Positions 470-24,000 are shown, numbered from the stretch's first letter. The stretch is 24,000 bases of DNA from Parasporobacterium paucivorans DSM 15970 (GCF_900141895.1 NZ_FQYT01000025.1:14104-38103), one strand, 5' to 3'. Notes: a model not told the origin generated them from the sequence alone. Numbers and translations are program-made.

Positions 470-470
470 G

Positions 471-4067: not shown

Positions 4068-4080
4068 GTCCTGCTGAATG

Positions 4081-4117: not shown

Positions 4118-4236
4118 ACTTTCGGTTGTTTGAACAACGGAAAAAAGACGGATACTGTAGTATCGTGGAGGTTGGTTTACCATATTGCTACTCGCATGTG
4201 AAATATTAAAGATTAAATGATTCAAGGGAGGAAAAA

Positions 4237-6366: not shown

Positions 6367-6367
6367 T

Positions 6368-10253: not shown

Positions 10254-11071
10254 GAAACCGACACAATAAACCGACGGGTCCTGACATAATCCAGATTGAA
10301 AATGCGACATTCCACTATGACGATAAACCCATTTTTAAGGACATTCATCTCGAAACAGCAGCAGGGGAATTGTTCTGTATTATGGGATGCAATGGATGTG
10401 GAAAAAGCACCCTTTTGGACTGCATTCTGGGGAATCACATCCTCGGGAGGGGAACAATCCTGGTGTCAGGAAAAGAGGTATCCGGTTACCGGCCGGCCGA
10501 ATTGGCGAAAAAAATCTCCTATGTCCCGCAGATACATGAAAAGTCATTTCCTTATCTCGTACGGCAGATTGTCCTGATGGGGAGGACAGCCCATTTGGGA
10601 GGATATGGGAAACCGGATGAGCTGGATGAGGATATTTCAGAGCAAAGTATGAAGGATGCCGGGATCGCCCACCTGGCAGACCGGCCATACACCCAGATCA
10701 GCGGAGGTGAAATGCAGATGGTTGCATTAGCCAGGGCTCTGGCACAGAAAACGCCCATCATCCTGATGGATGAGCCTACGGCCCACCTGGATTTTTTTAA
10801 TGAGATGCTCTTTTTGGAAAAAACAGTAGGATTGGTAAATACGGGGAACCGCACCATATTGATGGCAACCCATTCGCCCAATCAGGCCTTTTACCTGGAA
10901 AACCAGGGGGTAAAGGTGCGGGTCGCCCTGATGCATGAGGGTGCAATCTTTTCTGTTGGATCTCCTGATGAGGTGCTGACAGAAGAGAACCTGGCAAAAG
11001 TATATGGGGTCAAAGTCCGGATTCTTAGGGATGAAAACAGGAAACAAATAGTTCCTGTTGGGACCATTTAA
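10241..11071 (+). CDS. ABC transporter ATP-binding protein (FepC/FecE/BtuD type)
   Basis: Walker A 'GCNGCGKSTLL', signature 'ISGGEMQMVALARAL', Walker B 'IILMDEPTAHLD'. An alternative start ATG lies at 10250. It overlaps the end of the permease gene. Confidence 0.9.
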   Translation: MEGMRNRHNKPTGPDIIQIENATFHYDDKPIFKDIHLETAAGELFCIMGCNGCGKSTLLDCILGNHILGRGTILVSGKEVSGYRPAELAKKISYVPQIHEKSFPYLVRQIVLMGRTAHLGGYGKPDELDEDISEQSMKDAGIAHLADRPYTQISGGEMQMVALARALAQKTPIILMDEPTAHLDFFNEMLFLEKTVGLVNTGNRTILMATHSPNQAFYLENQGVKVRVALMHEGAIFSVGSPDEVLTEENLAKVYGVKVRILRDENRKQIVPVGTI

Positions 11072-11094
11072 AAAACAGACAGGGAGCCGGGAGA

Positions 11095-12195
11095 ATGCGT
11101 AAAATACAAAAAATAGCAGTATTTATTTTCGTGATGTTCACATTAATTGTAGTCTGTACGGCATGCAGCGGCCAGTCAGGGGCAGCGTCGGGCAAAGAAA
11201 CGGACACTTTTATTGACTGCATCGGACGGAAAGTGGAAATCCCCAAAACGATCAGAAAAGTAGCGGCAATCGATGCTTTTACGGGAGAAGCAATGGTGAT
11301 GATGGGAGCGGGCAGCTATATGGCAGCCTGTCCCGAAGGCGTCCGTTCGGATATGCTTCTTCAGGAAATCTATCCGGAACTGAAAGATGTGGCAGTTGTT
11401 CAGTCAGGCGGTTCCATTAATGCGGAGGCATTGCTTGCATTGGATCCGGATGTGGTATTGGTGAAATATGCCCTGTATATGACGGAAGGCGAAGTCGCGA
11501 AGCTGGATAAGCTGGGGATTCCATATCTCGTTATCGAATATACGAATATGGAGGAGCAGATTGAAGCACTGAACCTGATCGGGGAAGTGGTTGGAGGCAA
11601 GCCCCTGGAAAAAGCAGAAACAATCTGCCGGTATTATGAAGATACCATCCATCTGGTGACGGAAATCAGCGAAAAAATTCCCCAGAAAGAGAAGCTGGCT
11701 GTGTATCATTCAATCAATCAGACATTCAGGACGGATGGGGAGGATTCCCTGGGAGCGGACTGGATAAAGGCCGTCGGCTGCAAGGATGTTTCGGCGGACC
11801 AGGCCCTGACGTCAGATGGCGGCGGATATTTTGCGAGCCAGGAACAGGTTTTCGTATGGAACCCGGATGTCATTATATGCAATGCAGCCCTGACAAAAAA
11901 ATATTTTGAAGAGGATGCGGCGTGGCAGGGTCTTCGGGCAGTCTATGAGGGGAATGTCCATAACATACCGGTCGGAGCCACGCGATGGGGGCAGGAAGGA
12001 AGTGTGGAAACATTTTTTGGGATGCTCTGGCTCGGTGTCACCGTATATCCTGAGTATTACAGCCAGGTTAATCTGAAAAATGAGGTCGTGACATTTTATC
12101 GGGATGTATTAGGGATAGAGTTGGACGATGCTACATATGAAAAAATATTATCAGGTGATGGAATACGGGCTTCCAGCCAGAATGCGGGGAAATAG
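11095..12195 (+). CDS. ABC transporter substrate-binding lipoprotein (Peripla_BP_2 / class III, siderophore-heme-B12 type)
   Basis: Signal peptide with Cys ('VVCTACSG'). 'KVAAIDAFTGEAMVMMG' and 'LDPDVVLV' are typical of FhuD/BtuF-like binding proteins. Confidence 0.85.
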   Translation: MRKIQKIAVFIFVMFTLIVVCTACSGQSGAASGKETDTFIDCIGRKVEIPKTIRKVAAIDAFTGEAMVMMGAGSYMAACPEGVRSDMLLQEIYPELKDVAVVQSGGSINAEALLALDPDVVLVKYALYMTEGEVAKLDKLGIPYLVIEYTNMEEQIEALNLIGEVVGGKPLEKAETICRYYEDTIHLVTEISEKIPQKEKLAVYHSINQTFRTDGEDSLGADWIKAVGCKDVSADQALTSDGGGYFASQEQVFVWNPDVIICNAALTKKYFEEDAAWQGLRAVYEGNVHNIPVGATRWGQEGSVETFFGMLWLGVTVYPEYYSQVNLKNEVVTFYRDVLGIELDDATYEKILSGDGIRASSQNAGK

Positions 12196-12196
12196 G

Positions 12197-13075
12197 ATGG
12201 TTAAAATACTTGTCTGCGTGGATGACACGGATGATATTTCGAAAAAAACAAGCACCGGAAAAGTGGCAGAGATGATGGCGGGGGAGGTGAAGAAACTGGG
12301 AGGAGAAATCGTCCTTGGCATCACCAGGCACCAGCATCTTCTGCATGAATCCATAGCCTACACGTCGCACAACAGCTCCATGTGCTTTGAATCTGCCATT
12401 TTAGAAGAGAATCTGGACAGTCTGTGGGAAAATATGTCTGCCATATTAAGAAAAGAAATGGCAGAGACATCAGATCCCGGCCTATGCATGTGCAGGATGG
12501 ATTCCGTTTCCGCAGTCCACAAGCTGATTGCATTCGGTAAAAGGTCACAGCAGGAAGTCCTGCAGAAAAAAGAGGCCTTCCATTTGGCAGAAGAAACAGA
12601 TGTCCGCCTGGAAGCATTTAACCGAAGCGGTCTTGGCGTGATTGGTGCCCTGGCAGGAATGGGGCTGCGTTTATCCGGAAACGACGGGACTTTCCGAGGA
12701 AAAAACATACAGGGCATCAATCCGGGAATGTTTTTGGTTGGAGACTGCAAGAAAAAACTGGATGTATCCCAGGTCATTACCATGACTGGCCAGTACCTGC
12801 CGGATGACCGGGAAGTATATCTGGAAATAAATATGAAACTTATTTACTTCAATCATCAAAAAATGGCAATTGCGGAAGAACAGGAGAATGGCGTTTATAA
12901 AATTTGTGATAAGTCAGGTTTGTATAACGCGAACTGGAAACAGCAGGATTGGCGCAGCCCATGCGATATGTTTAGTCTGGATAATGATAAGAATGAATGT
13001 TATGGTAATGAGAGGTCGTGCCATAACTGCCAGTTTCGCAGATGGACCCCGAACGGGATAAGCTGCGTTAATTAG
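12197..13075 (+). CDS. Uncharacterised protein with an N-terminal 'VDDTDD' motif and a C-terminal Cys-rich ribbon (possible TiaS TCKD-like fold)
   Basis: I chose the ATG at 12197, 1 nt after the binding-protein stop, rather than the track start at 12128, which overlaps the upstream gene by 68 nt. Motifs are 'KILVCVDDTDDISKKTSTG', 'DPGLCMC', 'GLGVIGALAGMG' and the C-terminal 'C..(11)..C..(6)..CHNC..(12)..C'. The product assignment is an inference only. Confidence 0.6.
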   Translation: MVKILVCVDDTDDISKKTSTGKVAEMMAGEVKKLGGEIVLGITRHQHLLHESIAYTSHNSSMCFESAILEENLDSLWENMSAILRKEMAETSDPGLCMCRMDSVSAVHKLIAFGKRSQQEVLQKKEAFHLAEETDVRLEAFNRSGLGVIGALAGMGLRLSGNDGTFRGKNIQGINPGMFLVGDCKKKLDVSQVITMTGQYLPDDREVYLEINMKLIYFNHQKMAIAEEQENGVYKICDKSGLYNANWKQQDWRSPCDMFSLDNDKNECYGNERSCHNCQFRRWTPNGISCVN

Positions 13076-13087
13076 TTTCTGCTTTTG

Positions 13088-13116
13088 TTGACAGTGAAAA
13101 ATGAGAATGTTATGAT
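13088..13116 (+). promoter_or_regulatory. Near-consensus sigma-A promoter
   Basis: TTGACA (13088-13093), exactly 17 nt, TATGAT (13111-13116). It lies about 210 nt upstream of the rubredoxin-like CDS. Confidence 0.6.
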
Positions 13117-13327
13117 TGAATGATAATAAATATAAACAGATAATGGCTTTACCAAAGCCCCTGTCGATTGGTACTTCAGTTACACGGCGATTTTTCCTCA
13201 TTGTTTGGAAAATTGGGAGGAACGCCGCCATAATGGCCTTTTGCTGGCAAATTAATGCACCTGTTAGTAGTGTTGCGGGGTTTTTAACTGCAGACAAGTC
13301 AAGCACCCATGAAAGGAGAAATGAACT

Positions 13328-13657
13328 ATGTTATGGAAATGTACAGTTTGTGGATTTTTACACGAAGGAGATGAGGCGCCGGAGATATGTCCGAAATGTG
13401 GGGCTCCCAAGGAAAAGTTTGTAGCATTATCCGAAGAGGCGGCGAAAAAAATCTATGATTCTGACCGCACGAATGATATTCATATGGAGATTATCAAACT
13501 TGCAATGGAAATAAAGAATCTGGCTAAAGAAGGAATTGAAATCAATCTGGATCCTCCTTGTGTCGCATTATTCAAACAGGCACATGACGAAGCGTGGGTT
13601 ATTAAGCAGAGAAGCAAAGCCGAAATCATAGGTCATGTAACCAGAGAAAAATGGTAA
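13328..13657 (+). CDS. Rubredoxin-like zinc-ribbon protein with a helical C-terminal domain
   Basis: The N-terminal 'WKCTVCGFLHEGDEAPEICPKCGAPKEKF' is a CxxC...CxxC rubredoxin-type knuckle pair. The remaining roughly 75 aa look helical. RBS AAAGGAG precedes the start. Confidence 0.75.
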   Translation: MLWKCTVCGFLHEGDEAPEICPKCGAPKEKFVALSEEAAKKIYDSDRTNDIHMEIIKLAMEIKNLAKEGIEINLDPPCVALFKQAHDEAWVIKQRSKAEIIGHVTREKW

Positions 13658-13699
13658 AAATGGTAAATCTATCCGGGATCCTTTAACGGTAGAAGTAAA

Positions 13700-13740
13700 G
13701 AGGCCGGCCTCGTATCCTTATGGGATACGAAGCCGGCCTC
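13700..13740. terminator. Strong GC-rich hairpin between convergent transcription units
   Basis: GAGGCCGGC (13700-13708) pairs with GCCGGCCTC (13732-13740), and the inner arm TCGTATCC pairs with GGATACGA. This gives about 17 bp with one mismatch. A U-rich tract follows only on the minus-strand reading (CTTTACTTCT), so it is probably the terminator for the ferredoxin-side transcript. Confidence 0.6.
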
Positions 13741-13807
13741 CTGTGATGGTCAGTTCTTTTTCAATGAGTTTTTTTCTTAGCTTGTCCAAATTATTTTCGT
13801 TTTTCAT
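13718..13807 (-). CDS. Candidate 29-aa small ORF (MKNENNLDKLRKKLIEKELTITGGRLRIP)
   Basis: It is not in the ORF track because it is below the length cutoff. The ATG at 13807 is preceded by GAGGAGGT with a 7-nt spacer on the minus strand. The 3' end and stop codon lie inside the 13700-13740 hairpin. Confidence 0.3.
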   Translation of the reverse strand: MKNENNLDKLRKKLIEKELTITGGRLRIP

Positions 13808-13951
13808 AACGCGACCTCCTCGTATCACGAAAGTATCTTCTTGAGTTTGTTATACCACTTACACAACACGGACAAAAATTGGTCGATTAAGAGGTAGAGT
13901 ACAAAATAAGAGATGCGTGAAGGAGAAGTATTTTTTTTGTGCATCGACGGA

Positions 13952-14140
13952 TTATTCAATTGTAATAACATTTACAGGGCAATCTTCTTTTGCCTCAATT
14001 GCACAGCTTTCTGATTCCTTAGGAATCTCATTCACCAGTACGTTGGCTTTTCCGTCGTCCCCCATTTCAAAGACCTCAGGACAGTCAGATACGCACAATC
14101 CACATCCGATGCAGTCTGCTTTTAGGATATAAGCTTTCAT
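13952..14140 (-). CDS. fdx: Small [4Fe-4S] ferredoxin
   Basis: 62 aa. 'CIGCGLCVSDCP' plus the distal 'C...CP' match single-cluster clostridial/Thermotoga-type ferredoxins. RBS GGAGGT lies upstream. Confidence 0.9.
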   Translation of the reverse strand: MKAYILKADCIGCGLCVSDCPEVFEMGDDGKANVLVNEIPKESESCAIEAKEDCPVNVITIE

Positions 14141-14178
14141 TTTACTACCTCCATCAAAAAAATGTCTGCTACATCTTT

Positions 14179-14207
14179 ATTATATTCCCATATCACAGGA
14201 ACCACAA
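14179..14207 (-). promoter_or_regulatory. Candidate sigma-A promoter for the ferredoxin gene
   Basis: On the minus strand: TTGTGG (14207-14202), 17 nt, TATAAT (14184-14179). It lies about 35 nt upstream of the ATG. Confidence 0.5.
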
Positions 14208-14280
14208 TATAATTTCACCGTTCCATCCTGGCAAGTCTGTTTGAAAATATGAAAAGTCGATCGAATGGAATTAAATAGGC

Positions 14281-14318
14281 GGATACAATTGATATTATGA
14301 TAAAATGGGGATACAATT
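14281..14318 (+). repeat. Direct repeat GGATACAATT x2 overlapping the promoter elements
   Basis: GGATACAATT occurs at 14281-14290 and at 14309-14318, with starts 28 nt apart. The two copies overlap the -35 and -10 hexamers called below. Confidence 0.5.
14289..14317 (+). promoter_or_regulatory. Candidate sigma-A promoter for the Mo-oxidoreductase-fold lipoprotein gene
   Basis: TTGATA (14289-14294), 17 nt, TACAAT (14312-14317). Confidence 0.55.
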
Positions 14319-14396
14319 AATCTAGTGAAGAAAATAACTTTAGCGAACGTCGACACTGAGTTTTTTGAACAGATTCTCTGATCTGGAGGAATGAAA

Positions 14397-15047
14397 ATGA
14401 AAAAAGCGGCAGGTTGCATGTTATTGTTATTGTGCGCGATTCTTTTGGGTTCATGTAATAGTGGAGATAACTCGGGGACGGATGGGGTCTCCAATGCTAC
14501 GATGAAGCGCTACCAGGAGCTTGAAATACGCGAATATGAAGGCGTCAGGCTTGATCCATCCGTCGGGCCGCGTGACAATTCAATATCCGGCATCCAGAAT
14601 GTGGACATCAGTACCTATGAGCTTGCAATAACAGGACTTGTGAAAGAGTCGATTGCGCTTACATACGAAGAAGTACTGGAGCTTCCGTCTTATGAAAAGC
14701 TGATAACGCTCCATTGTGTGGAAGGATGGGATGCCACTGTTTTATGGAAAGGGGTCCTGCTTTCGGACCTGATTGAAATGGCGGGAGCCGACAGTGCGGC
14801 CAACACGGTTATTTTTCATGCCGTTGACGGGTATACAACTGCGCTGCCGCTTCAGGATGTAATCGACAAAAAAATAATTCTGGCATATTCTTCGAACAGA
14901 ATTCCGCTGCCTCCCGCTCTGGGATATCCGTTTATCGTGGTTGCAGAAGATAAACCTGGTTACAAATGGGCAAGATGGGTGACGAAAATCGAACTTTCGG
15001 ATGACCCATATTATCTGGGATACTGGGAAAGCAGAGGTTTTCCTTAA
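14397..15047 (+). CDS. Lipoprotein with an oxidoreductase molybdopterin-binding (sulfite oxidase / YedY-MsrP) fold
   Basis: Lipobox 'LLGSC'. 'LITLHCVEGWDATVLWKGVLLSDL', 'FHAVDGYTTALPL' and 'GYPFIVVAEDKPGYKWARWVTKIEL' are typical of this family. The start is set at the second ATG (14397), which gives 7-nt spacing from GGAGGA. The track start is 14391. Confidence 0.8.
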   Translation: MKKAAGCMLLLLCAILLGSCNSGDNSGTDGVSNATMKRYQELEIREYEGVRLDPSVGPRDNSISGIQNVDISTYELAITGLVKESIALTYEEVLELPSYEKLITLHCVEGWDATVLWKGVLLSDLIEMAGADSAANTVIFHAVDGYTTALPLQDVIDKKIILAYSSNRIPLPPALGYPFIVVAEDKPGYKWARWVTKIELSDDPYYLGYWESRGFP

Positions 15048-15054
15048 ACCAAAG

Positions 15055-15083
15055 GAGCCCCCGAGGAGGGGGCTTTATTTATA
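15055..15083 (+). terminator. Rho-independent terminator
   Basis: AGCCCCC (15056-15062) / GGGGGCT (15068-15074) with loop gagga, followed by TTTATTTAT. Confidence 0.8.
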
Positions 15084-15175
15084 CCGAATCGAAATTTTAC
15101 GTGGTTTTGACTTGGGTATGTGGGGAGTTTGTGATAAAATTGTTAAAGGTATTGTTATAAGGGGGACTTCGATTT

Positions 15176-16594
15176 ATGAAAATGAAAAATACCCGTTTTA
15201 ATGGGAGACTTATAGTTATTGGCGCAAGCGCTGTCGTTTTGGCGTCTGCCGCCGGCACGGCTTTTGTTTTTACTGACCATACGGATACTTCCGCTGAAAC
15301 ATCCGTTGCACCTGAAGATGGAACTGTGGATAAGGCTGCGCTGCTTACCCGGGAAGATATCGAAAACTATTTATATGAAAAAAATCTGATCAGCATGGCA
15401 CATGCCCACGAATTGCTGGCTTCCAGGCCGGTTTTGACTCTGAAGGTCTCCTCTGTGGGAAGCCGGGTTTCTGTCAAAATTGTACTGCCTGACGGAAATC
15501 TTGCAACAGGCAATCTTTTTGTCATAACGCTTACGGATGAAGCGGGGACTCGAACCGAATATACCAATAATGACATGGATGGGTGGATCATCATCGATAA
15601 TCTTGAAAAAGGAGATTATGCAGTATCCATGAATGAGATGAAGGATTTCGTCACTCCTGCCTCCCCGACGGTGACTGTTGAAGGTGAGGTAGCGCCTGTG
15701 GCAGTAGCGAATATTGAGGAGAAAGTAGTCAGTGAAGCGAAGATCGTTGTAGCCGAAGAAGATGCTGCTTATGGAAACGTGACGACGGCTGAAACGGTAC
15801 AGGATACTCCTGCCCCTGAAACGACTGCATCTGCACCGACCGAGACGTCTGCCGAAACATCTGTACAGCCGGTTTTTACGGGTTGGCAGACATTCGACGG
15901 CAGTACCTATTATTACGATGGAACCGGTAACCGGGTAACCGGCTGGCAGACGATTGGCGGGTTGAAATATTATTTTAATGAGTCTGGGGTGAAATCGTCC
16001 AAAGTCGGCGTCGACGTATCGAGATACCAGTATGCAATCGACTGGGCGGCGGTCAAGGCCTCAGGAGTTGATTATGCGATTATACGTCTCGGATACAGAG
16101 GATACGGTTCCGGGGCCCTGGTGCTGGATCCGTATTACATCCAAAATATCAGAGGTGCATCAGCCGCCGGCCTGCAAGTGGGAGTCTATTTCTTTTCACA
16201 GGCCATTACAGAGACGGAAGCTGTAGAGGAAGCCAGTATGGTGCTGGAGTACATCCGCGGCTACAATATTTCCTGTCCGGTTGCTTTTGATACGGAGTTC
16301 GTGAATGATGTTGCGCGGGCAAATAATTTGTCTGCTACTGACAGGACGACCATTGCACTGGCCTTCTGCAGAACCATTGCCAATGCCGGATATACATCTA
16401 CTGTATATGCAAGCAAAAGTTTTCTATACAACAATCTGGAATTATCCAGACTGTCGGGATATCAGACATGGCTGGCGCATTATGTCAATATGACGGATTA
16501 CGCCTACGATTATGATATGTGGCAGTATACGTCCAAGGGTTCCATAAACGGAATCAGCACGGGCGTTGATCTGAATGTCTGGTTAAACAATTGA
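15176..16594 (+). CDS. GH25 muramidase (lysozyme) with cell-wall-binding repeats
   Basis: N-terminal signal anchor. Two CW_binding_1-type repeats read 'GWQTFDGSTYYYDGTGNRVTGWQTIGGLKYYFNESG'. The C-terminal 'GVDVSRYQYAIDWAAVKASGVDYAIIRLGYRG...VAFDTE' is GH25. Confidence 0.9.
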   Translation: MKMKNTRFNGRLIVIGASAVVLASAAGTAFVFTDHTDTSAETSVAPEDGTVDKAALLTREDIENYLYEKNLISMAHAHELLASRPVLTLKVSSVGSRVSVKIVLPDGNLATGNLFVITLTDEAGTRTEYTNNDMDGWIIIDNLEKGDYAVSMNEMKDFVTPASPTVTVEGEVAPVAVANIEEKVVSEAKIVVAEEDAAYGNVTTAETVQDTPAPETTASAPTETSAETSVQPVFTGWQTFDGSTYYYDGTGNRVTGWQTIGGLKYYFNESGVKSSKVGVDVSRYQYAIDWAAVKASGVDYAIIRLGYRGYGSGALVLDPYYIQNIRGASAAGLQVGVYFFSQAITETEAVEEASMVLEYIRGYNISCPVAFDTEFVNDVARANNLSATDRTTIALAFCRTIANAGYTSTVYASKSFLYNNLELSRLSGYQTWLAHYVNMTDYAYDYDMWQYTSKGSINGISTGVDLNVWLNN

Positions 16595-16619
16595 CAATCG
16601 AAGATTTAAGTTATATTGT
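16591..16619 (+). promoter_or_regulatory. Possible promoter for the NTF2 / URO-D / heliorhodopsin operon
   Basis: TTGACA (16591-16596, overlapping the GH25 stop) is followed by TATATT at 15-nt spacing or TATTGT at 17-nt spacing. The spacing and hexamer quality are ambiguous. Read-through from the GH25 gene is also possible because no terminator lies between them. Confidence 0.3.
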
Positions 16620-16677
16620 TGAAATACAGTTACACGAAACCGAAAACATATGCAAAAAAACCTAAGGAGGAAATTCT

Positions 16678-16998
16678 ATGATATTGGAAGATTACATTGC
16701 TCGCATGAACAAAAGTGATTTTGAAGGTATTGGAAATTTGTTTACGGAAGGTTGTCGGTTTAATGACGGAGGCGCAAGAACCATCGGTGTGGATGACCTG
16801 GTAGTGAATGGACGGGAAGCCTTGAAAAAGGCATTTCAGGGGGTCTGGGAAGTATATAAGGTTCGGGCTGAAATTGTAAAGCTGAATGCACATTCTATGG
16901 AATATGACGTATTTCTGGGAGATGTCAAACTTGAATGTATCGGCTGTGCAACTTTGAAAGACGGTCTTATCGATGAATATATTGTGAGACCCCGCTGA
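16678..16998 (+). CDS. NTF2 / SnoaL-like small protein
   Basis: 106 aa. The size and the N-terminal 'YIARMNKSDFEGIGNLFTEGCRFNDGG' pattern are typical of SnoaL-like domains. Strong RBS AAGGAGG. Confidence 0.6.
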   Translation: MILEDYIARMNKSDFEGIGNLFTEGCRFNDGGARTIGVDDLVVNGREALKKAFQGVWEVYKVRAEIVKLNAHSMEYDVFLGDVKLECIGCATLKDGLIDEYIVRPR

Positions 16999-17030
16999 TT
17001 AGGGCGTTTTATCAGAACAGGAGGGTTTGC

Positions 17031-18032
17031 ATGTTAACAAGAAGAGAGAATCTGCTGGAAACAATCCGGGGAGGAAACCCGGATCGTTTTGTGAAACAGT
17101 TTGAACCATTTGCCCTTCAGTGGGCGACACCCCAGGATGTCAGATTTCCTGCTCCCGAGTATGGAAAAGGAATAGCCAGAAACTGCTGGGGAGTCTATTT
17201 TTCGTGGCCGGAGGGAACGCCCGGACCGGTGTCGTCACTTGATTCCGAACACCGTCTGATTAAGGATATTTACCACTGGCAGGATTATCTGAAGATGCCG
17301 GAAACGGAATTTCCTGAAAGCGAGTGGAAATGGATTATGGAACGGGCGGATAAGGTGGATCGGAACGAGTATTTCGTGACGGCCGCCATATGGCCGGGAT
17401 TATTTGAAAACTGCCTCCATATGATGGGTATGGAGGAGTTCGTAATCAATATGTATGAAGAACCGGAAATTATCCATGCTATTCTGGATCTCATGACGGA
17501 ATATGAGGTGCGGATGGCACGTCAGATTTGTAATCACATCCATCCGGATGCAGTTTTCCGCCTGGATGACTGGGGCGGTCAGTCTTCCACGTTCCTCTCC
17601 GTGGAGATGTTCCATGAGTTTATCTTTGAGAGGACCAAGAAAATCTACGATACATACCGGGAAAATGGGGTTGAGATTATCGTTCACCATTCCGATTCAT
17701 ATGCAGAGACCCTGGTACCGGAAATGCTGAATATGGGTATCGATATCTGGCAGGGTGCCTTCAACACGAATGATCTTCCCCGCCTCGTCCGTGAGTATAA
17801 GGGCAGGCTGACTGTAATGGGCGGCATCAACTCCGGAATCGTTGACAGTCCGGATTGGACACGGGAGAAGGTGGCTGCAGAAGTGGAGAAGATTATAAGG
17901 TGGACAGACTCCAGGTATTTCATTCCGAACCTGACTTTTGGGGGAGATGAAAGCACCTATAGAGGAGTGTATGAGGCGGCAGATGCGGAGATTGAAAAAA
18001 TGGGTAAGGAGTATTTTGCGGAAATCAAATAA
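17031..18032 (+). CDS. Uroporphyrinogen decarboxylase (URO-D) family protein, MtaA/CmuA-like methyltransferase subgroup
   Basis: 333 aa. 'RRENLLETIRGGNPDR', 'FRLDDWGGQ' and 'IVHHSDSY' resemble the expanded URO-D-family paralogs of anaerobic Firmicutes. RBS GGAGGG. Confidence 0.8.
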   Translation: MLTRRENLLETIRGGNPDRFVKQFEPFALQWATPQDVRFPAPEYGKGIARNCWGVYFSWPEGTPGPVSSLDSEHRLIKDIYHWQDYLKMPETEFPESEWKWIMERADKVDRNEYFVTAAIWPGLFENCLHMMGMEEFVINMYEEPEIIHAILDLMTEYEVRMARQICNHIHPDAVFRLDDWGGQSSTFLSVEMFHEFIFERTKKIYDTYRENGVEIIVHHSDSYAETLVPEMLNMGIDIWQGAFNTNDLPRLVREYKGRLTVMGGINSGIVDSPDWTREKVAAEVEKIIRWTDSRYFIPNLTFGGDESTYRGVYEAADAEIEKMGKEYFAEIK

Positions 18033-18048
18033 GTAGGAGGACGTAAGG

Positions 18049-18834
18049 ATGACCAATAAAACGACGTTCAAATCACTTTGGAGATTCAACCTGATTATGG
18101 GCTGTATCCACTGCCTGCAGGGTGTGGTTATGGTGGTGCTCGCGTTATCTATTGACAGGATTTCGGCCTTCAAGATTCCGGTTTTATCCAATTTTCTGAA
18201 GTTCGATACCGAAACTATGAGGTTGGTAACGGACACCCGGACTCTGTTTTCGGTGCCATTCGCGGTTTTTGTGTCTGTTTTCCTATTCCTGTCGGCTTTG
18301 GCTCATTTTATTATTTGTGCTCCGATATCAAATGATGTCTATAATGCCAGTCTCGTTAAAAGGAGAAATCCTTTCCGCTGGTATGAATACGCCCTCAGTT
18401 CATCCCTGATGATTGTTCTGATTGCACTCTTATTCGGGGTGTATGACGTCGGGTCCCTGATTCTGATGTTTGCCCTGAATGCCTGCATGAATCTTTTTGG
18501 GCTGCTGATGGAACAGCAGAATCAAAACAGGATGCCGATAAACTGGACTCCATTTGTTTTTGGATCTTTCGCGGGACTGGTTCCCTGGGGCGTTTTGTGC
18601 ATGTTTGCCTTCGGGAATTCGGATCTTGGCAAGGTGCCTTGGTTTGCATATGCCATTTTTGGGTCTTATTTTGTGTTTTTTAATCTGTTTCCTATCAATA
18701 TGATTCTCCAATATAAGCAGATAGGAAAATGGAGGGATTATTTATATGGAGAAAGGGTATACATCATACTGAGTCTGGTGGCCAAAACGGTATTAGCCTG
18801 GCTGGTATTCTTTGGAGTGATGCAGCCAAATTAA
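18049..18834 (+). CDS. Heliorhodopsin
   Basis: 261 aa with seven hydrophobic helices. It is colinear with my recollection of heliorhodopsin 48C12: 'KSLWRFNLIMGCIHCLQ', 'LSALAHF', 'FRWYEYALSSSLMIVLIA', 'NACMNLFGLLME', 'GLVPW', 'FFNLF...LQYKQIGKWRDYLYGERVYIILSLVAKTVLAW'. The Schiff-base Lys is retained (K246, nt 18784-18786), as are the counterion Glu (E113) and both His residues (H21, H86). Confidence 0.9.
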   Translation: MTNKTTFKSLWRFNLIMGCIHCLQGVVMVVLALSIDRISAFKIPVLSNFLKFDTETMRLVTDTRTLFSVPFAVFVSVFLFLSALAHFIICAPISNDVYNASLVKRRNPFRWYEYALSSSLMIVLIALLFGVYDVGSLILMFALNACMNLFGLLMEQQNQNRMPINWTPFVFGSFAGLVPWGVLCMFAFGNSDLGKVPWFAYAIFGSYFVFFNLFPINMILQYKQIGKWRDYLYGERVYIILSLVAKTVLAWLVFFGVMQPN

Positions 18835-18841
18835 ACAAAGG

Positions 18842-18882
18842 AAAGAGAGCCAATGCGGTTTTTTGCATCAGCTCTCTTTTTT
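18842..18882 (+). terminator. Rho-independent terminator of the heliorhodopsin operon
   Basis: AAAGAGAGC (18842-18850) / GCTCTCTTT (18871-18879), with inner ATGC/GCAT pairing, followed by a T-run. Confidence 0.8.
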
Positions 18883-18925
18883 GAAAATTGGATGGAGAAA
18901 TCTTTATAACTGCTTTATGTTAATT

Positions 18926-18952
18926 TTCAAATGGGGTGAGTGCCCATTTGAA
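18926..18952. repeat. Perfect 10-bp inverted repeat in the AT-rich gap
   Basis: TTCAAATGGG (18926-18935), 7-nt spacer gtgagtg, CCCATTTGAA (18943-18952). Confidence 0.7.
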
Positions 18953-19131
18953 GCAATTATCTTTTTTGGTGCCGAATGAATTAAATGTAAGTTGTGTGAA
19001 AATAAAATATCATTATTAGAAGAATAAGTCAATTTAATTTAAAAATTCACAAATATAATAAAAATATAACAAGATTACCAATAAATTGACGATATATGCA
19101 GATGGATTCCAGAAGAGATTTGAAGAGTAAG

Positions 19132-19140
19132 TGGTATAAT
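19132..19140 (+). promoter_or_regulatory. Extended -10 promoter element (TGgTATAAT)
   Basis: TG at 19132-19133 and TATAAT at 19135-19140. There is no good -35. It lies about 130 nt upstream of the pirin-like start and upstream of the first palindrome copy. Confidence 0.4.
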
Positions 19141-19231
19141 ATCATGAAAGGATGGCAGAATATGGATCTTAATGATATATTATTAAAGGAGCGTTAGGGG
19201 GTTCACACGTTGGGGGGAGCCACACGTTTAG

Positions 19232-19244
19232 GGGGTCAGACCCC
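19232..19244. repeat. GGGGTCAGACCCC palindrome, copy 1
   Basis: Exact 13-mer. It extends to an imperfect TTAGGGGGTC/GACCCCTAA palindrome. It is preceded by related G-run units (TTAGGGGGTTCACACG, TTGGGGGGAGCCACACG). It ends 25 nt before the pirin-like ATG. Confidence 0.95.
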
Positions 19245-19269
19245 TAAGATGACAGAAGGAGATAATTTC

Positions 19270-19968
19270 ATGATAAGAAAAATTTATAGCAGCAAATTGG
19301 GTACAAGTGATATAGGATGGTTAAAAAGCAGGTTTCATTTTTCCTTTGCTGATTATTATAATCCCGAAAATATAAATTTTGGAACGTTAAGGGTCCTCAA
19401 TGATGACCAGATATTTCCCAATTCGGGGTTTGATATTCATCCGCACAATGAAATGGAAATAATATCTTATGTTGTCGATGGAAAATTGACCCACAGCGAT
19501 AACATGGGAAATAAGAATGCAATTTCCCGGGGAGATATACAGTACATGAGTGCCGGTACAGGCGTTTGGCATAGCGAATTCAATCGGGGGCAGGAGATCC
19601 TGCGGTTTCTCCAGATATGGATTATTCCTGATAAGAAAGGTTATAACCCAAGCTACGGAGATTTCCCTTTTGCATGGGAAAGCAGAAAGAATAGCTGGCT
19701 TCATATGGTGTCAGACCCCGAGGGAGGAGCACCAATTAAAATTCATCAGGACTGCAATATTTATTCACTTGAACTCGAAGCCGGCAAAGAAATTCAATTT
19801 CCAGTAAATGAGGAGAGGCAGGCTTATCTGGTACAGATTGAAGGATCCTCTGATATTAATGGTATAGATATGACCGAACGGGATGCCATGGAAATTATTG
19901 GAGAACCCATTACGATCAAAGCAAGTAAAACGTCACATATACTTCTAATTGAAATGAAGAAGGTATAG
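19270..19968 (+). CDS. Pirin-family (YhhW-like) cupin protein
   Basis: 232 aa from the ATG at 19270 (RBS GAAGGAG, 8-nt spacing). 'GWLKSRFHFSFADYYNPENINFGTLRVLNDD', 'GFDIHPHNEMEIISYVVDGKLTHSDNMGN' and 'GDIQYMSAGTGVWHSEFN' are pirin hallmarks. The track start at 19210 (TTG) was not used. Confidence 0.85.
   Translation: MIRKIYSSKLGTSDIGWLKSRFHFSFADYYNPENINFGTLRVLNDDQIFPNSGFDIHPHNEMEIISYVVDGKLTHSDNMGNKNAISRGDIQYMSAGTGVWHSEFNRGQEILRFLQIWIIPDKKGYNPSYGDFPFAWESRKNSWLHMVSDPEGGAPIKIHQDCNIYSLELEAGKEIQFPVNEERQAYLVQIEGSSDINGIDMTERDAMEIIGEPITIKASKTSHILLIEMKKV
19707..19719. repeat. 12/13 degenerate copy (GGTGTCAGACCCC) inside the pirin-like CDS
   Basis: It differs from the 13-mer only at position 3 and encodes 'VSDP' in frame. 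Confidence 0.5.
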
Positions 19969-19988
19969 ACGTTGACAAAAGGTGAGGG

Positions 19989-20001
19989 GGGGTCAGACCC
20001 C
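19989..20001. repeat. GGGGTCAGACCCC palindrome, copy 2
   Basis: Exact 13-mer, extended to GGGGGTCAGACCCCC (19988-20002). It starts 21 nt after the pirin stop and ends 15 nt before the MFS ATG. Confidence 0.95.
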
Positions 20002-20016
20002 CAAGTGAGTGACGGT

Positions 20017-21213
20017 ATGAATATGCAACGTTATTTAGGCAATAAGGGACTTGTTGGTTTTATTGCATTGATGAATATGCTTATCCCTCTTTCAATAGAC
20101 ATGTACCTGCCGGCTTTGCCAGGCATGAATGCTTATTTCGGGAGCAGCTCTGCAATCACGAACCTTACACTTAGTGCATTTTTTCTTTTCTATGCGGTTG
20201 GCATCCTGTTTTGGGGACCCCTAAGTGATAAATATGGCCGTAAAAAGATTCTTTTGGTGGGGGGAATAGTGTATCTTCTTAGCAGCATTGCCTGTGCCCT
20301 TTCCTTCAATATTTATTTTTTGATTGCTGCCAGAATTTTTCAAGGAATAGGCTCAGGAGGAATTACTTCTGTATCTATTGCCATTATCAAGGATTGCTTT
20401 GCAGGAAAAAAGAGGGGGGCCATACTGGCAATTAGTCAGTCTGTCTCGGGACTTGCACCCATGCTGGCTCCTGTAGTGGGAGGCATTATCCTGCGATTTA
20501 CAAATTGGCAGGGAACTTTTTGGGCTCTGGCGGCAATTGCTGCTATTAATCTGGTGCTGATTTTTCTTTTTGAGGAGACGCTTAAGGAAGAAGACAAATA
20601 TACCGGAACCGTGATGGGTTCCCTCGGCCGTCTTCTGATAGTGGGCAAAAATAAAAGCTTCATGATACCGGCCGGTATCTTTTCATTGTGTGCGCTGCCG
20701 TTTATGGGTTACATTGCTGTATCCTCATATATTTATGTGGATTATTTTGGCCTGAGCGCGCAGGAATACAGTTATTTTTTTGCGGCTAATGCACTCGTGT
20801 CCATATGCGGTCCATTTCTGTATGTGAGGGTCTTTATGGTCCTGAATAAAAAGGTTTTTGCTGCATCGATGCTGGGGATTTCTGCCATCAGCGGAATTCT
20901 CGTTATGACAATTGGAACGCTAACTCCCATTTTGTTTTGGGCATCCTTTGCTCTGATGTCTCTGTCGGTTTCCATTACCAGACCCTTTAGCACGGCGCTG
21001 TTGCTTGATCAACACGTGAGTGATACTGGAGCAGTTTCATCATTGATAAATACAATGTTTACAGTGCTGGGAAGCGTGGGGATGTCGGTCGTTACTTTGA
21101 TGCCGGGAAATATAATCACAGTCTTGGGAGTATTGATTGCAGTTTTTTCGGTAATCCCTTTCATAGGATGGATTGCATTCATGAAGTCGAGCATTCCTTG
21201 TAAGGGAGTATAA
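20017..21213 (+). CDS. MFS efflux transporter, Bcr/CflA (DHA1) family
   Basis: 'LIPLSIDMYLPALPGM', 'GPLSDKYGRKK' and 'ARIFQGIGSGG' are classic Bcr/CflA motifs, with about 12 TM helices. The start could be the ATG at 20017 or at 20023, and the RBS is weak. Confidence 0.85.
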   Translation: MNMQRYLGNKGLVGFIALMNMLIPLSIDMYLPALPGMNAYFGSSSAITNLTLSAFFLFYAVGILFWGPLSDKYGRKKILLVGGIVYLLSSIACALSFNIYFLIAARIFQGIGSGGITSVSIAIIKDCFAGKKRGAILAISQSVSGLAPMLAPVVGGIILRFTNWQGTFWALAAIAAINLVLIFLFEETLKEEDKYTGTVMGSLGRLLIVGKNKSFMIPAGIFSLCALPFMGYIAVSSYIYVDYFGLSAQEYSYFFAANALVSICGPFLYVRVFMVLNKKVFAASMLGISAISGILVMTIGTLTPILFWASFALMSLSVSITRPFSTALLLDQHVSDTGAVSSLINTMFTVLGSVGMSVVTLMPGNIITVLGVLIAVFSVIPFIGWIAFMKSSIPCKGV

Positions 21214-21232
21214 ACAATGAGGAGTGTCATAT

Positions 21233-21259
21233 GGGTCGGGGTCATAGGGGTCGGGGTCA
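21233..21259 (+). repeat. Tandem GGGTCGGGGTCA direct repeat abutting palindrome copy 3
   Basis: GGGTCGGGGTCA occurs at 21233-21244 and again at 21248-21259. The second unit supplies the left arm of copy 3. ATAGGGGTC (21244-21252) is also the reverse complement of GACCCCTAT (21260-21268), which gives an alternative, larger hairpin. Confidence 0.8.
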
Positions 21260-21265
21260 GACCCC
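21253..21265. repeat. GGGGTCAGACCCC palindrome, copy 3
   Basis: Exact 13-mer. It starts 40 nt after the MFS stop and ends 37 nt before the flavodoxin-like ATG. Confidence 0.95.
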
Positions 21266-21302
21266 TATCGGCATGACCATACCAGCAAAGGAGGAAATGA
21301 AT

Positions 21303-21719
21303 ATGAAGATTGCGGTCATTTATTTAACAAAGACGGGACATTCGAGGAAGATAGCTAATGCCATTGCTGGGGAACTGAACATTCATGCAGAAGATATCAG
21401 TATGAATCCAGGAATTGCCGATGTGGATATACTTTATATCGTAGGTGGGATTTACGGTGGTAAGAGTGACCCGATTATGATTGAATACATTAAAGGCATT
21501 GACAGTACAATGGTAAAAAAAGCAGTCTTGTTAACCTCCTGTGTTAGCAAAAAATTCAAACAGGATGAGGTCAGGGAGATTCTGCGCCGCAAGAATATTG
21601 AAGTTAGTTCAGAGGAATTTGTTTGCCAGGGTGGTTTGGGGTTTATTGGACGGAAACATCCCAACAGTTCGGATTTAGAAAATGCCATTGCATTTGTGAA
21701 GGGGGGTCAGACCCCATGA
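21303..21719 (+). CDS. Flavodoxin-family protein
   Basis: 138 aa from the ATG at 21303 (AAAGGAGG, 8-nt spacing). 'MKIAVIYLTKTGHSRKIA' is a flavodoxin-type phosphate-binding loop. The last five codons (GGQTP) are encoded by palindrome copy 4, and the stop overlaps the glf ATG (ATGA). Confidence 0.7.
   Translation: MKIAVIYLTKTGHSRKIANAIAGELNIHAEDISMNPGIADVDILYIVGGIYGGKSDPIMIEYIKGIDSTMVKKAVLLTSCVSKKFKQDEVREILRRKNIEVSSEEFVCQGGLGFIGRKHPNSSDLENAIAFVKGGQTP
21703..21715. repeat. GGGGTCAGACCCC palindrome, copy 4
   Basis: Exact 13-mer. It directly abuts the glf ATG (21716) and lies inside the 3' end of the flavodoxin-like CDS. Confidence 0.95.
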
Positions 21720-22843
21720 GAGAGGATGAATACATAGTGAAACAATATGATTACCTTATTGTTGGCGCAGGCTTATTCGGTGCAGTATTTGCGCATGAAG
21801 CATTTAAAAGGGGAAAGAAGTGTCTTGTATTAGACCGCCGGAATCATATTGGCGGAAATATTTACTGTGAAAAGATAGAAGGTACAAATGTACATAAATA
21901 CGGTGCGCATATTTTTCATACCAGCGATAAGAAAATATGGGATTATGTAAATCAATTTGTTGAGTTTAATCGATATACCAATTCTCCTATAGCAAATTAT
22001 AAGGGAGAAATTTATAATCTTCCGTTTAATATGAATACTTTTAATAAGTTGTGGGGAGTCGTTACTCCAAAAGAGGCCAAGAGCAAAATTGAAGAACAGA
22101 AGGCGGCAGCGGGGATACGTGAACCGAAAAATCTGGAAGAACAGGCTATTTCCCTGGTTGGTACCGACATTTATAAGAAGCTGGTGAAGGAGTATACCGA
22201 GAAACAGTGGGGGCGGAAAGCTGTTGATCTGCCGGCCTTCATCATAAGGCGACTTCCTGTTCGGTTTACCTATGACAATAATTATTTTGACGATAAATAT
22301 CAAGGAATCCCCGTAGGCGGATACAATGTGATTATTGAAAAAATGCTGGAAGGTACCGAGTTAATGCTGAATAAGGATTATTTTTCGGATAAAGAAAATT
22401 TCGATAAAATGGCAGAAAAGGTTGTGTTTACGGGCATGATTGATGAATTTTTCGGGCACAGATTCGGAAGGCTTGAGTATAGAAGCCTGCGGTTTGAAGA
22501 TGAAATTCTTGACAAGGATAATTACCAGGGGAATGCAGTCGTAAATTATACGGATGCGGAAACGCCTTTTACCCGGATTATTGAACACAAGCATTTCGAA
22601 TTTGGCACCCAGCCAAAGACCGTCATCACCAGGGAGTATCCTGCAGAATGGAAACCGGGGGATGAACCGTATTATCCGGTAAACGATGAAAAAAATATGC
22701 ATTTATATGAAAAATATAGGGAGCTTGCTGAAAGAGAAAAAAATGTGATATTCGGAGGCAGGCTGGCTGAATACAAATATTACGATATGCATAATGTTAT
22801 TTCAAAAGCACTGCTTCTGTGGGGGTCAGACCCCATAAAATAA
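21716..22843 (+). CDS. glf: UDP-galactopyranose mutase
   Basis: 'YDYLIVGAGLFGAVFA', 'GGNIY...VHKYGAHIFHT', 'YTEKQWG', 'RIIEHKHF', 'PYYPVND' and 'GGRLAEYKYYDM' are all characteristic Glf motifs. A possible alternative GTG start lies at about 21737. Confidence 0.9.
   Translation: MREDEYIVKQYDYLIVGAGLFGAVFAHEAFKRGKKCLVLDRRNHIGGNIYCEKIEGTNVHKYGAHIFHTSDKKIWDYVNQFVEFNRYTNSPIANYKGEIYNLPFNMNTFNKLWGVVTPKEAKSKIEEQKAAAGIREPKNLEEQAISLVGTDIYKKLVKEYTEKQWGRKAVDLPAFIIRRLPVRFTYDNNYFDDKYQGIPVGGYNVIIEKMLEGTELMLNKDYFSDKENFDKMAEKVVFTGMIDEFFGHRFGRLEYRSLRFEDEILDKDNYQGNAVVNYTDAETPFTRIIEHKHFEFGTQPKTVITREYPAEWKPGDEPYYPVNDEKNMHLYEKYRELAEREKNVIFGGRLAEYKYYDMHNVISKALLLWGSDPIK
22822..22834. repeat. GGGGTCAGACCCC palindrome, copy 5
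   Basis: Exact 13-mer within the last seven codons of glf (encodes GSDP). Confidence 0.95.
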
Positions 22844-22850
22844 ATCAAAC

Positions 22851-22885
22851 ATGCCGTAGGTTAAAAAAACCTGCGGCATTATTCT
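22851..22885 (+). terminator. Terminator hairpin after glf
   Basis: ATGCCGTAGGTT (22851-22862) / AACCTGCGGCAT (22868-22879): a 12-bp stem including one G-U pair, with loop AAAAA, followed by TTATTCT. Confidence 0.7.
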
Positions 22886-22886
22886 G

Positions 22887-24000
22887 GTGCGCCTGGCGGC
22901 GCACGTTTCTAAAGGGTGAAAGTCCCAAATCCGCCCTAGTAGTGGGAAGGATACAGCCAAGACCAAGGGTGTCCATCGTGAGGTGGAATCTGAAGGAAGG
23001 TGGAGGCAAAACTCTGGTCTGACGAACAGAAATCACATGAGGCTATACGTTGAGGATAAGGTTGCCAGACAAACCAAAGTCCAATTACTACTCGGAATCA
23101 ACTATAGTAAATGTGGCAGATGGATGGAGTGAAAGAAACGTGTGGTACCCAGGGAGATCTCGCCAGCGGATGGAAACAGAGTATGAAATCCGTGAGTAAC
23201 AACGAATGGCGAGAAGTCAGCAGAAGCCATATTAAACCGATGGTTGCAAAAATCGGCGAAGGGCTGAACTTTAGGAGATACAAGCAATGAAAGTAACTGA
23301 TAGTAGATTTAAGAACAGACAACTTCATATTGAGGACTATCTGCAAATGGTATCGGCGGAACAGAAAGAGTATGCAGAAGTGTTCGACTACGGGAAGATT
23401 ACTGAAAAGAGCGGTATCATCACAGACTATTGGACGAACAATCTTTTGGATTTGATTTTACTAAAAGATAACCTTAATAAGGCTTATAAAAGGGTGAAAG
23501 CAAACAAGGGCAAAGGTGGAATTGATGGTATGCAGGTGGATGAACTTCTGCCCTTCCTAAGAGAAAATCAAGATACCCTAATCCAAGAGATAAGGAATGG
23601 TAAATATAAGCCAAACCCAGTTCGAAGGGTAGAAATACCCAAAGAAACAAAAGGTGAGTTTAGAAAGATAGGAGTTCCAACTGTAGTTGACAGGGTTATT
23701 CAACAGGCAATCACACAGGAACTTACACCAATCTATGAGGAACAATTCTCAGAAAACAGTTTTGGTTTTCGACCAAAAAGAGGAGCACACGGTGCCCTCA
23801 AGCAGTGCCAAAAGAATGTAAACGATGGCTATGTATATGTGGTGGATATGGACTTGGAAAAGTTCTTTGATACTGTAAGTCAGAGTAAACTGATTGAGGT
23901 ACTTAGCAGAACCATTAAAGACGGTAGACTGATTTCACTCATCCATAAATATCTGAATGCGGGAGTTATTGCAAACGGAATGTTTGAGAGAACAGAAATA
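22887..24000 (+). mobile_element. Group II intron (5' portion; continues beyond the window)
   Basis: GTGCG lies at 22887, the expected 5' boundary. Strings typical of domain I are present (GGGTGAAAGTCCC, GGTGGAATCTGAAGGAAGG). About 400 nt of structured non-coding RNA precede an RT/maturase ORF that begins at 23287. Confidence 0.85.
23287..24000 (+). CDS. Group II intron reverse transcriptase/maturase (N-terminal 238 codons; truncated by the window end)
   Basis: My own translation is open from the ATG at 23287 to the window end. 'AYKRVKANKGKGGIDGM', 'RRVEIPKETKGEFRKIGVPTVVDRVIQQAI', 'SFGFRPKRGAHGAL' and 'YVVDMDLEKFFDTV' are RT blocks 1-4. The YADD block would lie beyond 24000. Confidence 0.9.
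   Translation, partial: MKVTDSRFKNRQLHIEDYLQMVSAEQKEYAEVFDYGKITEKSGIITDYWTNNLLDLILLKDNLNKAYKRVKANKGKGGIDGMQVDELLPFLRENQDTLIQEIRNGKYKPNPVRRVEIPKETKGEFRKIGVPTVVDRVIQQAITQELTPIYEEQFSENSFGFRPKRGAHGALKQCQKNVNDGYVYVVDMDLEKFFDTVSQSKLIEVLSRTIKDGRLISLIHKYLNAGVIANGMFERTEI

Follow-up and report, generated by a model that had tools for sequence, protein, structure and literature searches.

A repeated 13-nt palindrome at the gene junctions of a Parasporobacterium paucivorans operon: a probable REP element of a Bacillota RAYT clade

Why should four consecutive genes be set apart from one another by identical copies of a single short palindrome? The question is raised by a stretch of 24,000 nt from Parasporobacterium paucivorans DSM 15970 (GCF_900141895.1, NZ_FQYT01000025.1:14104-38103; this whole stretch is referred to as the window), within which the 13-mer GGGGTCAGACCCC (general pattern form GGGGTCWGACCCC) punctuates a block of co-directional genes at positions 19132 to 22885. 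The original prediction, made by reading the sequence, likened this block to the gene-cassette arrays of integrons, and offered as alternatives a hairpin resembling repetitive extragenic palindromes (REPs) or the operator of a dimeric regulator. The evidence assembled here argues strongly for a form of the REP alternative: GGGGTCAGACCCC is very probably the core hairpin of a REP-type element belonging to a REP-associated tyrosine transposase (RAYT) of the Y1/HUH type from Bacillota. Because a RAYT gene is linked to the motif in a related contig, L001, and in other loci, the block itself is best read as a REP cluster without a RAYT that saturates the junctions of one operon.

A motif search recovers exact copies of GGGGTCAGACCCC at 19232, 19989, 21253, 21703 and 22822, all on the + strand with A as the central base, and with spacings between successive copies of 757, 1264, 450 and 1119 nt, exactly as originally reported. 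The resulting density is five copies in 3.6 kb and none in the preceding 19 kb, where positions 1-19000 contain no match in the exact search or even with two mismatches allowed (copy counts for P. paucivorans refer throughout to the 24-kb window). The assertion that five copies cannot be a matter of chance likewise holds, as a search permitting up to two mismatches returns 12 strand-matches against 0.44 expected from shuffles, with 0 of 100 shuffles reaching 12. The inventory of five was complete for exact copies; it overlooked one site with a single mismatch, GGTGTCAGACCCC at 19707 within the pirin coding sequence, which is the sole further site in the window at two mismatches or fewer. Pfam agrees with all four gene identities proposed (pirin, MFS, Flavodoxin_5 and GLF). 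The copies and genes of the block are as follows.

19232 to 19244, + strand: copy 1, GGGGTCAGACCCC, 25 nt 5′ of the pirin ATG
19270 to 19968, + strand: pirin-family gene (Pfam), between copies 1 and 2; missing from the homologous locus in L001
19707 to 19719, + strand: one-mismatch copy, GGTGTCAGACCCC, within the pirin coding sequence, where it encodes M-V-S-D-P
19989 to 20001, + strand: copy 2, 20 nt past the pirin stop and 15 nt ahead of the MFS ATG; orthologous to the copy at L001:8719
20017 to 21213, + strand: MFS transporter gene, Bcr/CflA-like (Pfam)
21253 to 21265, + strand: copy 3, between the MFS and flavodoxin-like genes; counterpart at L001:9954
21303 to 21719, + strand: Flavodoxin_5-family gene (Pfam), the last five codons (GGQTP*) and stop of which run through or just past copy 4
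21703 to 21715, + strand: copy 4, at the flavodoxin/glf junction, the site at which L001 has a RAYT gene and orf142 flanked by copies of the palindrome
21716 to 22843, + strand: glf, UDP-galactopyranose mutase (Pfam GLF), with a C-terminal tail (WGSDPIK*) read through copy 5
22822 to 22834, + strand: copy 5, overlapping the final glf codons; without a counterpart in L001

Three of the five copies are intergenic, and the remaining two overlap the last five to seven codons of a gene. The motif had been placed 0-37 nt ahead of each gene and, measured to the next start, the distances for copies 1 to 4 are indeed 25, 15, 37 and 0 nt; the last of these probably needs amendment, however, as alignment with L001 suggests that the true glf start is the GTG at 21737, behind a conserved AGAGAGGA ribosome-binding site. 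Copy 4 would therefore lie 21 nt 5′ of glf, and its only overlap would be with the final five codons of the flavodoxin-like gene. At the far end of the block, copy 5 coincides with the end of the final gene, as had been described. Copy 1 probably sits in the 5′ leader of the block, and directly 5′ of it, at 19196-19231, are two G-rich units, GGGGGTTCACACGTT and GGGGGGAGCCACACGTTT, with CACACGTT in common, which could be remnants of partial REP copies or have arisen by slippage. Apart from a variable run of G and C, nothing is common to the flanks of the five exact copies. With regard to the near-copy at 19707, seven close pirin homologues all have MVSSK or MVSSM where the window pirin has M-V-S-D-P. 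The near-REP is completed by the 'DP' (GACCCC), which is thus peculiar to this protein; chance could account for it, or a small conversion event with a REP as donor.

The flavodoxin-like and pirin proteins of the window are 100 % identical to P. paucivorans proteins, and the next-best flavodoxin homologue (69 %) is encoded on L001, a 25-kb contig that is syntenic with the window at ~75 % nucleotide identity. L001 is the only close relative found, such that the comparison rests on one genome. Both share the order GH25, SnoaL-like, heliorhodopsin, MFS, flavodoxin, glf, and differ in three respects, namely a URO-D gene and the pirin gene, each confined to the window, and a RAYT gene with orf142, confined to L001. 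These last two genes lie between flavodoxin and glf, and comprise a 188-aa Y1_Tnp gene and an orf142 that has no Pfam or NCBIfam match. Alongside its REP-like alternative, the original prediction had pointed to a RAYT or HUH transposase as something to look for, and it is in the L001 block that such a gene is found. Exact copies of the 13-mer are present in L001 at 8540 (after heliorhodopsin), 8719 (before MFS), 9954 (between MFS and flavodoxin) and 10433 (after flavodoxin, with central T), and degenerate ones at 11102 (3′ end of the Y1_Tnp gene) and 11586 (before glf); overall, 11 strand-matches are obtained versus 0.13 expected. In both sequences the orthologous copies preceding MFS and separating MFS from flavodoxin are exact, whilst the other intergenic columns are only 43-46 % identical, and it is this conservation of orthologous copies, directly observed, that argues for maintenance of the core.

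Unit-wise variation with breakpoints at the palindromes, which a cassette interpretation would entail, is seen in part. The pirin indel (window, between copies 1 and 2) and the RAYT + orf142 indel (L001, between copies) both have their breakpoints at REPs; the URO-D indel (window 17031-18032), however, has no palindrome at its edges, and MFS, flavodoxin and glf follow one another in the same order in both sequences. A second sample of the L001 organism has the same arrangement with no polymorphism, and a metagenome scan with the MFS protein gave just a 1.6-kb fragment at 58 % identity. The URO-D-family gene at 17031-18032 is methyltransferase-like and is situated between the SnoaL-like gene and heliorhodopsin; it is absent from that position in L001, which carries a longer URO-D gene on the minus strand at 14153-15466.

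The L001 transposase is assigned to the Y1 superfamily (PF01797), and its best NCBIfam model is NF047646, REP-associated tyrosine transposase (71.5 bits), with the IS200 model scoring 19 bits (cut-off 55). Its HUH motif (NHVHL) and Tyr motif (RYIHxNP) are invariant in 11 homologues, and the sole match of the RAYT profile against the PDB is 4ER8, the E. coli TnpA-REP structure (E = 7e-6). The closest homologue, at 73 % identity, is P0073, a P. paucivorans protein annotated as transposase/RayT and encoded on a 77.7-kb contig. P. paucivorans has, then, a RAYT of its own, known from this protein and located on another contig than the window. Its C-terminus reads ...EKGV, an ending which suggests that the 3′ end of the gene overlaps a REP, as in locus L116 below. 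The RAYT protein clusters examined are each found on only one or two contigs in the database.

The association of the 13-mer with a RAYT is not confined to L001. Three further independent metagenome loci (L113, L114/L115 and L116/L117) encode RAYTs 50-54 % identical to that of L001 and flanked by the identical 13-mer, so that the link between the motif and RAYT genes is observed directly. In all three, the copy upstream of the RAYT gene has TCAGA at its centre and that downstream has TCTGA, and the flanking copies are hence inverted. L113 has copies at 9834 and 9887 upstream (TCAGA) and at 10584 and 11349 downstream (TCTGA); L114/L115 at 5699 upstream and 6319 downstream, with more at 3436, 4908, 6822 and 7888, one per gene boundary, such that every boundary over 4.5 kb of L114 carries a REP; and L116/L117 at 9953 upstream and 10523 downstream. 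The downstream REP frequently overlaps the 3′ end of the RAYT gene (L116:10523-10535; L001:11102-11114; L114:6319-6331), and in L116 it provides the stop codon itself, with K G V * encoded by AAG GGG GTC TGA. RAYT C-terminal tails that read into the REP accordingly end in ...KGV* (stop inside the REP) or ...GSDP..., much like the GSDP and GQTP tails of glf and the flavodoxin-like gene in the window. Direct repeats containing a REP bracket the RAYT gene in L116 (31 nt) and, in L113, a neighbouring gene pair (58 nt, 93 % identical). The latter, at L113:10563-11385 and immediately 3′ of the RAYT gene, is a toxin-antitoxin pair of the HEPN/MNT type (NTase_sub_bind + NTP_transf_2).

A wider survey, in which GTDB genomes were scanned with a RAYT alignment, returned at least 80 RAYT loci from Bacillota and other phyla. 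Among the loci listed, those of Alkalihalobacterium elongatum, Paradesulfitobacterium ferrireducens, Bacillus thermotolerans, Sutcliffiella, Bacillus ectoiniformans and others are densely populated with the exact core. Its arrangement varies: in A. elongatum the exact 13-mer often forms inverted doublets 31-39 nt apart, P. ferrireducens has eight exact copies in 14 kb, copies recur every 2-3 kb over 20 kb in some Bacillaceae loci, and in several genomes the core is found at the apex of longer palindromes, that of B. thermotolerans being ~45 nt in length. Across these listed loci, the density of core copies within 0.5-1 kb of the RAYT gene is 3-6 times that at greater distances. In 14 loci that are 58-90 % coding by a crude open reading frame call, 47 of 55 exact copies are at gene boundaries or intergenic, and the extragenic placement of the motif is in this way also a direct observation; those between co-directional genes comprise 19 sense-A and 10 sense-T copies. 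Other loci listed have repeated 13-nt cores of their own with the same design, for example GGGGACAGTCCCC, GGTGCCAGGCACC, GGTGACAGGCACC and GGGGCCAGACCCC. Cores differ between genomes, the cognate REP varying with its RAYT, and a case in point is A. elongatum MEB199, the two RAYT loci of which have GGGG[TA]CWG[AT]CCCC (L125; 13 copies in 14 kb, many of them forming inverted doublets) and GGTGCCWGGCACC (L154; 10 copies in 20 kb), without cross-occurrence of either core over these 14-20 kb.

The family of related cores observed in this way takes, across many genomes, the variant form GGKG-NCWGN-CMCC. A comparison of 11 core variants shows the four outer pairs to be retained and the central CWG to be invariant, with positions 5 and 9 frequently unpaired, so that the design which is conserved consists of a 4-bp stem and an NCWGN loop. 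At pair 3/11, six of these variants have G-C and four have T-A, which is a compensatory exchange in a small sample. The covariation score across the same small set is 0.225 versus 0.110 in shuffles, and a value this high is reached by 7 of 500 shuffles. For GGGGTCAGACCCC itself the predicted stem-loop has a 5-bp stem and a CAG loop, and a DNA folding energy of -3.4 kcal/mol for the bare hairpin. Folded as RNA in context, four of the five exact copies are no better than shuffles. Copy 3 is contained within a larger imperfect palindrome (21234-21278), GGTCATAGGGGTC...GACCCCTATcggcATGACC, with a duplicated left half-site, GGGGTC GGGGTCAGACCCC, and a further GGGTCGGGGTC just 5′ of it; as RNA this region reaches -26.4 kcal/mol (z = -3.3), with 0 of 200 shuffles as good. 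A terminator scan (G/C hairpin + T-run) listed none of the + strand GGGGTCAGACCCC copies as intrinsic terminators, and Rfam has no match at the hairpins in the window.

Classical REPs usually number more than 100 copies and are dispersed through the genome. What defines a RAYT is the position of its gene between REP copies that are inverted relative to each other (Nunvar 2010, PMC2817692), and REPs have a tag, GTAG or CGTC, at one end (Di Nocera et al. 2013, PMC3733652). Much of this is reproduced here, where inverted copies flank the RAYT in three loci, the repeats are extragenic, the palindrome is predicted to form a hairpin and shows compensatory change, and each RAYT has its cognate REP. 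The resemblance to the systems of Proteobacteria (E. coli TnpA-REP/REP-BIME; Pseudomonas and Stenotrophomonas REPINs; PMC2817692, PMC3116915) accordingly extends to a short G/C-rich extragenic palindrome, a Y1/HUH gene flanked by inverted copies, a separate cognate core for each RAYT and non-autonomous copies away from it. Proteobacterial REPs differ, however, in having 20-40 nt conserved as opposed to 13-15 nt in P. paucivorans, and a GTAG or CGTC tag as opposed to none; furthermore, in loci of the Lachnospiraceae type the copies are few, for the most part single and not paired in inverted orientation, and crowded into a few kb around the RAYT site. Whilst proteobacterial REPs are typically species-specific, an identical core is here common to RAYTs that are ~45-55 % identical and come from different Bacillota classes.

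A likeness, by description, is also offered by Group 1 RAYTs, which are widely distributed, including in Clostridia, have flanking 16-mers at low copy (~12 per replicon), and are among the RAYT groups most like insertion sequences (Bertels, Gallie & Rainey 2017, PMC5581495); such low-copy flanking repeats fit the low-copy, RAYT-proximal pattern seen here. No Firmicutes REP sequence is given in that paper, and those of Nunvar (PMC2817692) and Di Nocera (PMC3733652) make no mention of Firmicutes or Clostridia, with Bacillus named only for the unrelated bcr1 element. A full-text search of the available papers with the 13-mer and 11-mer cores gave unrelated primer and virus sequences only. This particular Firmicutes REP family therefore seems to be undescribed so far, although the kind of system is already known.

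If it behaves like E. coli TnpA-REP and the enzymes of the IS200/IS605 family, the RAYT would bind the hairpin in single-stranded DNA, for instance at a replication fork, and would cut and rejoin the strand beside it, thereby seeding new copies mostly near its own gene; such local spreading may be what causes the clustering. Copies would survive only where insertion is harmless, that is, at gene boundaries, which could explain why REPs occupy every junction of the operon and replace some last codons and stops. In the lineage of the window, a RAYT gene may once have resided between the flavodoxin-like gene and glf, as it still does in L001, and its hairpins may have filled the junctions of the neighbouring operon. 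With the P. paucivorans RAYT now on another contig, the window would have been left with its five-copy cluster. Effects of the hairpins on mRNA or translation are likewise conceivable by analogy.

Several observations weigh against this assignment. The score of the L001 protein against NF047646, at 71.5 bits, is below the curated cut-off of 80, and the window is itself without a RAYT gene, with tblastn of the L001 RAYT and orf142 finding no remnant of either within it. The conserved part of the element spans just 13-15 nt, GTAG and CGTC tags are absent, and no tetranucleotide is conserved in the ±18 nt flanks of the 55 copies. Orientation in L001 departs from that in the three metagenome loci, as the copy nearest upstream of the RAYT gene is TCTGA, making both nearest copies TCTGA, with the TCAGA copies further upstream. 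Lastly, Lachnospiraceae-type loci have few copies, all within 2-3 kb, and there are none in ~60 kb of flanking sequence.

Use of the palindromes by the host as RNA elements, i.e. as 5′ or intercistronic stem-loops of a polycistronic mRNA that protect against RNases or tune translation at stops and starts, is a tentative and rather unlikely explanation when taken on its own. E. coli REPs stabilise upstream mRNA and can lower translation when near a stop codon. Each of the five copies has the same orientation as the four genes, orthologous copies are perfectly kept amid diverged spacers, copy 3 is part of a strong hairpin, and copy 1 is just 3′ of a promoter-like site, its L001 equivalent lying between a promoter-like TTGGTC-N17-TATAAT and the MFS start. 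The bare hairpin is nevertheless weak (-3.4 kcal/mol as DNA; four of five exact copies no better than shuffles as RNA in context), orientation to transcription is mixed elsewhere (19 sense-A versus 10 sense-T), and the tight link to RAYTs is left unexplained. It is possible that an RNA role accompanies the REP/RAYT assignment as a secondary use, rather than replacing it. Mobilisation of whole genes by the RAYT, whereby a gene between co-oriented REPs is excised as a single-stranded circle with one REP and re-inserted at another, leaving the window as a four-unit array after the RAYT moved, is doubtful. It would account for pirin lying between copies 1 and 2 in the window with one REP before MFS in L001, for RAYT + orf142 lying between REPs in L001 with one REP in the window, for the REP-containing direct repeats around the L113 HEPN/MNT pair (58 nt, 93 %) and the L116 RAYT (31 nt), for a REP at each gene boundary over 4.5 kb of L114, for flavodoxin-like homologues of ~60 % identity in unrelated contexts, and for a G+C content of the block below most of the window. 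Conversely, the only relative has MFS, flavodoxin and glf in the same order with REPs at the same positions, the URO-D indel (17031-18032) has no REP at its edges, no unit occurs in two different genomic places, the two samples of the L001 organism are without polymorphism, and the junction REP has a central A in the window as against a central T in L001. Only one 75 %-identical genome is being compared, moreover, and the pattern is accounted for equally well by deletion between 13-bp repeats or by REPs having inserted independently. The ~60 %-identical flavodoxin-like homologues (L198-L201) are also without the motif, which therefore does not travel with that gene.

That the hairpins are the ends of an autonomous IS200/IS605-type insertion sequence, or of PATE-like derivatives, in place of a domesticated RAYT/REP system is an improbable reading. 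The enzyme is from the same Y1 superfamily (PF01797), the IS200/IS605 elements IS608 and ISDra2 recognise a small subterminal hairpin on one strand, which provides a plausible common chemistry, the compact REP-RAYT-REP of L116 with flanking direct repeats resembles a transposable unit, and the Group 1 RAYTs with their low-copy 16-mers, found also in Clostridia, are among the most IS-like (PMC5581495). Nonetheless, it is the RAYT model that fits best (71.5 versus 19 bits for IS200), the sole PDB match is TnpA-REP, hairpins are inverted in three of the four closest loci, unlike the co-oriented left and right ends of IS608, they far outnumber the gene, and the RAYT clusters are each on only one or two contigs. 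An operator for a dimeric transcription factor co-regulating the four genes, the second alternative of the original prediction, is very unlikely; a perfect 6+1+6 palindrome is typical of dimer sites and one copy is near a promoter-like site, yet four of the five copies are between genes or inside 3′ ends and not at promoters, the block has no regulator gene, and the same 13-mer flanks RAYTs and unrelated genes in at least 10 other genomes from several orders. The leading proposal of the original prediction, an integron-like cassette array, here taken to have a miniature attC, can be given almost no credence. Co-oriented one-gene units, a conserved palindromic separator that would act as single-stranded DNA and a group II intron next door do recall integron cassettes, and the likeness is one of layout only: Pfam finds no IntI, tyrosine or serine recombinase among the genes of the window, nor is there an integrase or recombinase among the genes called in L001, L113, L114 and L116; the site is a bare hairpin of 13 nt (13-15 nt common to the copies) in comparison to an attC of ~57-141 bp, and lacks the R''/L''-L'/R' organisation; each gene has its own ribosome-binding site; the intron follows an ordinary terminator hairpin and is not in the palindrome; and gene order is the same in the single relative.

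Three other candidates were considered and ruled out. A HIP1-like iterated palindrome is inconsistent with the absence of the motif from 19 kb of the window and its ties to RAYT loci, CRISPR with the presence of whole genes between copies, and an assembly artefact with the recurrence of the same pattern in independent assemblies. A 14-mer search of viral contigs gave 111 single matches and no multi-copy locus, consistent with chance.

With the REP/RAYT assignment, a striking pattern is explained by a known mechanism, and a false lead to integron-like arrays in Firmicutes is removed. A REP/RAYT family is at the same time documented in Bacillota, where such systems are little described, and it stands out for a small untagged core, GGKG-NCWGN-CMCC, that is identical across ~50 %-identical RAYTs and clustered near the RAYT rather than genome-wide. 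This offers a compact system for how a Y1/HUH enzyme recognises a hairpin of 4-5 bp, and the block allows one to ask whether REP-to-REP cutting deletes or moves genes; were RAYT-mobilised cassettes to prove real, the neighbourhood of a RAYT would be a gene-capture platform, a cassette system built on HUH chemistry instead of an integron integrase. For annotation, it is relevant that REP insertions rewrite the last codons and stops of the flavodoxin-like gene, glf and the RAYT gene.

The block is bounded by the following features.

18835 to 19231, no strand assigned: AT-rich spacer with two terminator-like hairpins and a promoter-like site (19152-19181)
22851 to 22879, + strand: terminator-like hairpin, ATGCCGTAGGTT-aaaaa-AACCTGCGGCAT, read by eye; closes the block and is outside the REP family
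22887 to 24000, + strand: group II intron (5′ GUGCG at ~22887; Rfam RF02001, 145 bits) with a reverse transcriptase open reading frame from 23287; cut off by the window end

The AT-rich gap said to precede the block is present, and measures 397 nt after the heliorhodopsin gene in place of the ~370 bp claimed. The terminator followed by a group II intron at the other end was correctly recognised; the hairpin was missed by the terminator scan because its tail has fewer than five T residues, and the intron is the only Rfam match in the window. Inserted 7 nt after this hairpin, the intron is a neighbour of the REP system, unlinked to the palindrome. As to the block being more AT-rich than the rest of the window, its G+C content of 0.33-0.45 is lower than the 0.45-0.53 at 4-18 kb, but equally low values occur elsewhere in the window, for example 0.39 at 13.5-14.5 kb; the lower G+C content is real, modest and shared with other parts of the window. 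Upstream of the spacer, a heliorhodopsin gene (18049-18834; Pfam E = 6e-101) is found in what is a strictly anaerobic Lachnospiraceae bacterium, and its neighbours, encoding a GH25 lysozyme and a SnoaL-like protein, are the same in L001.

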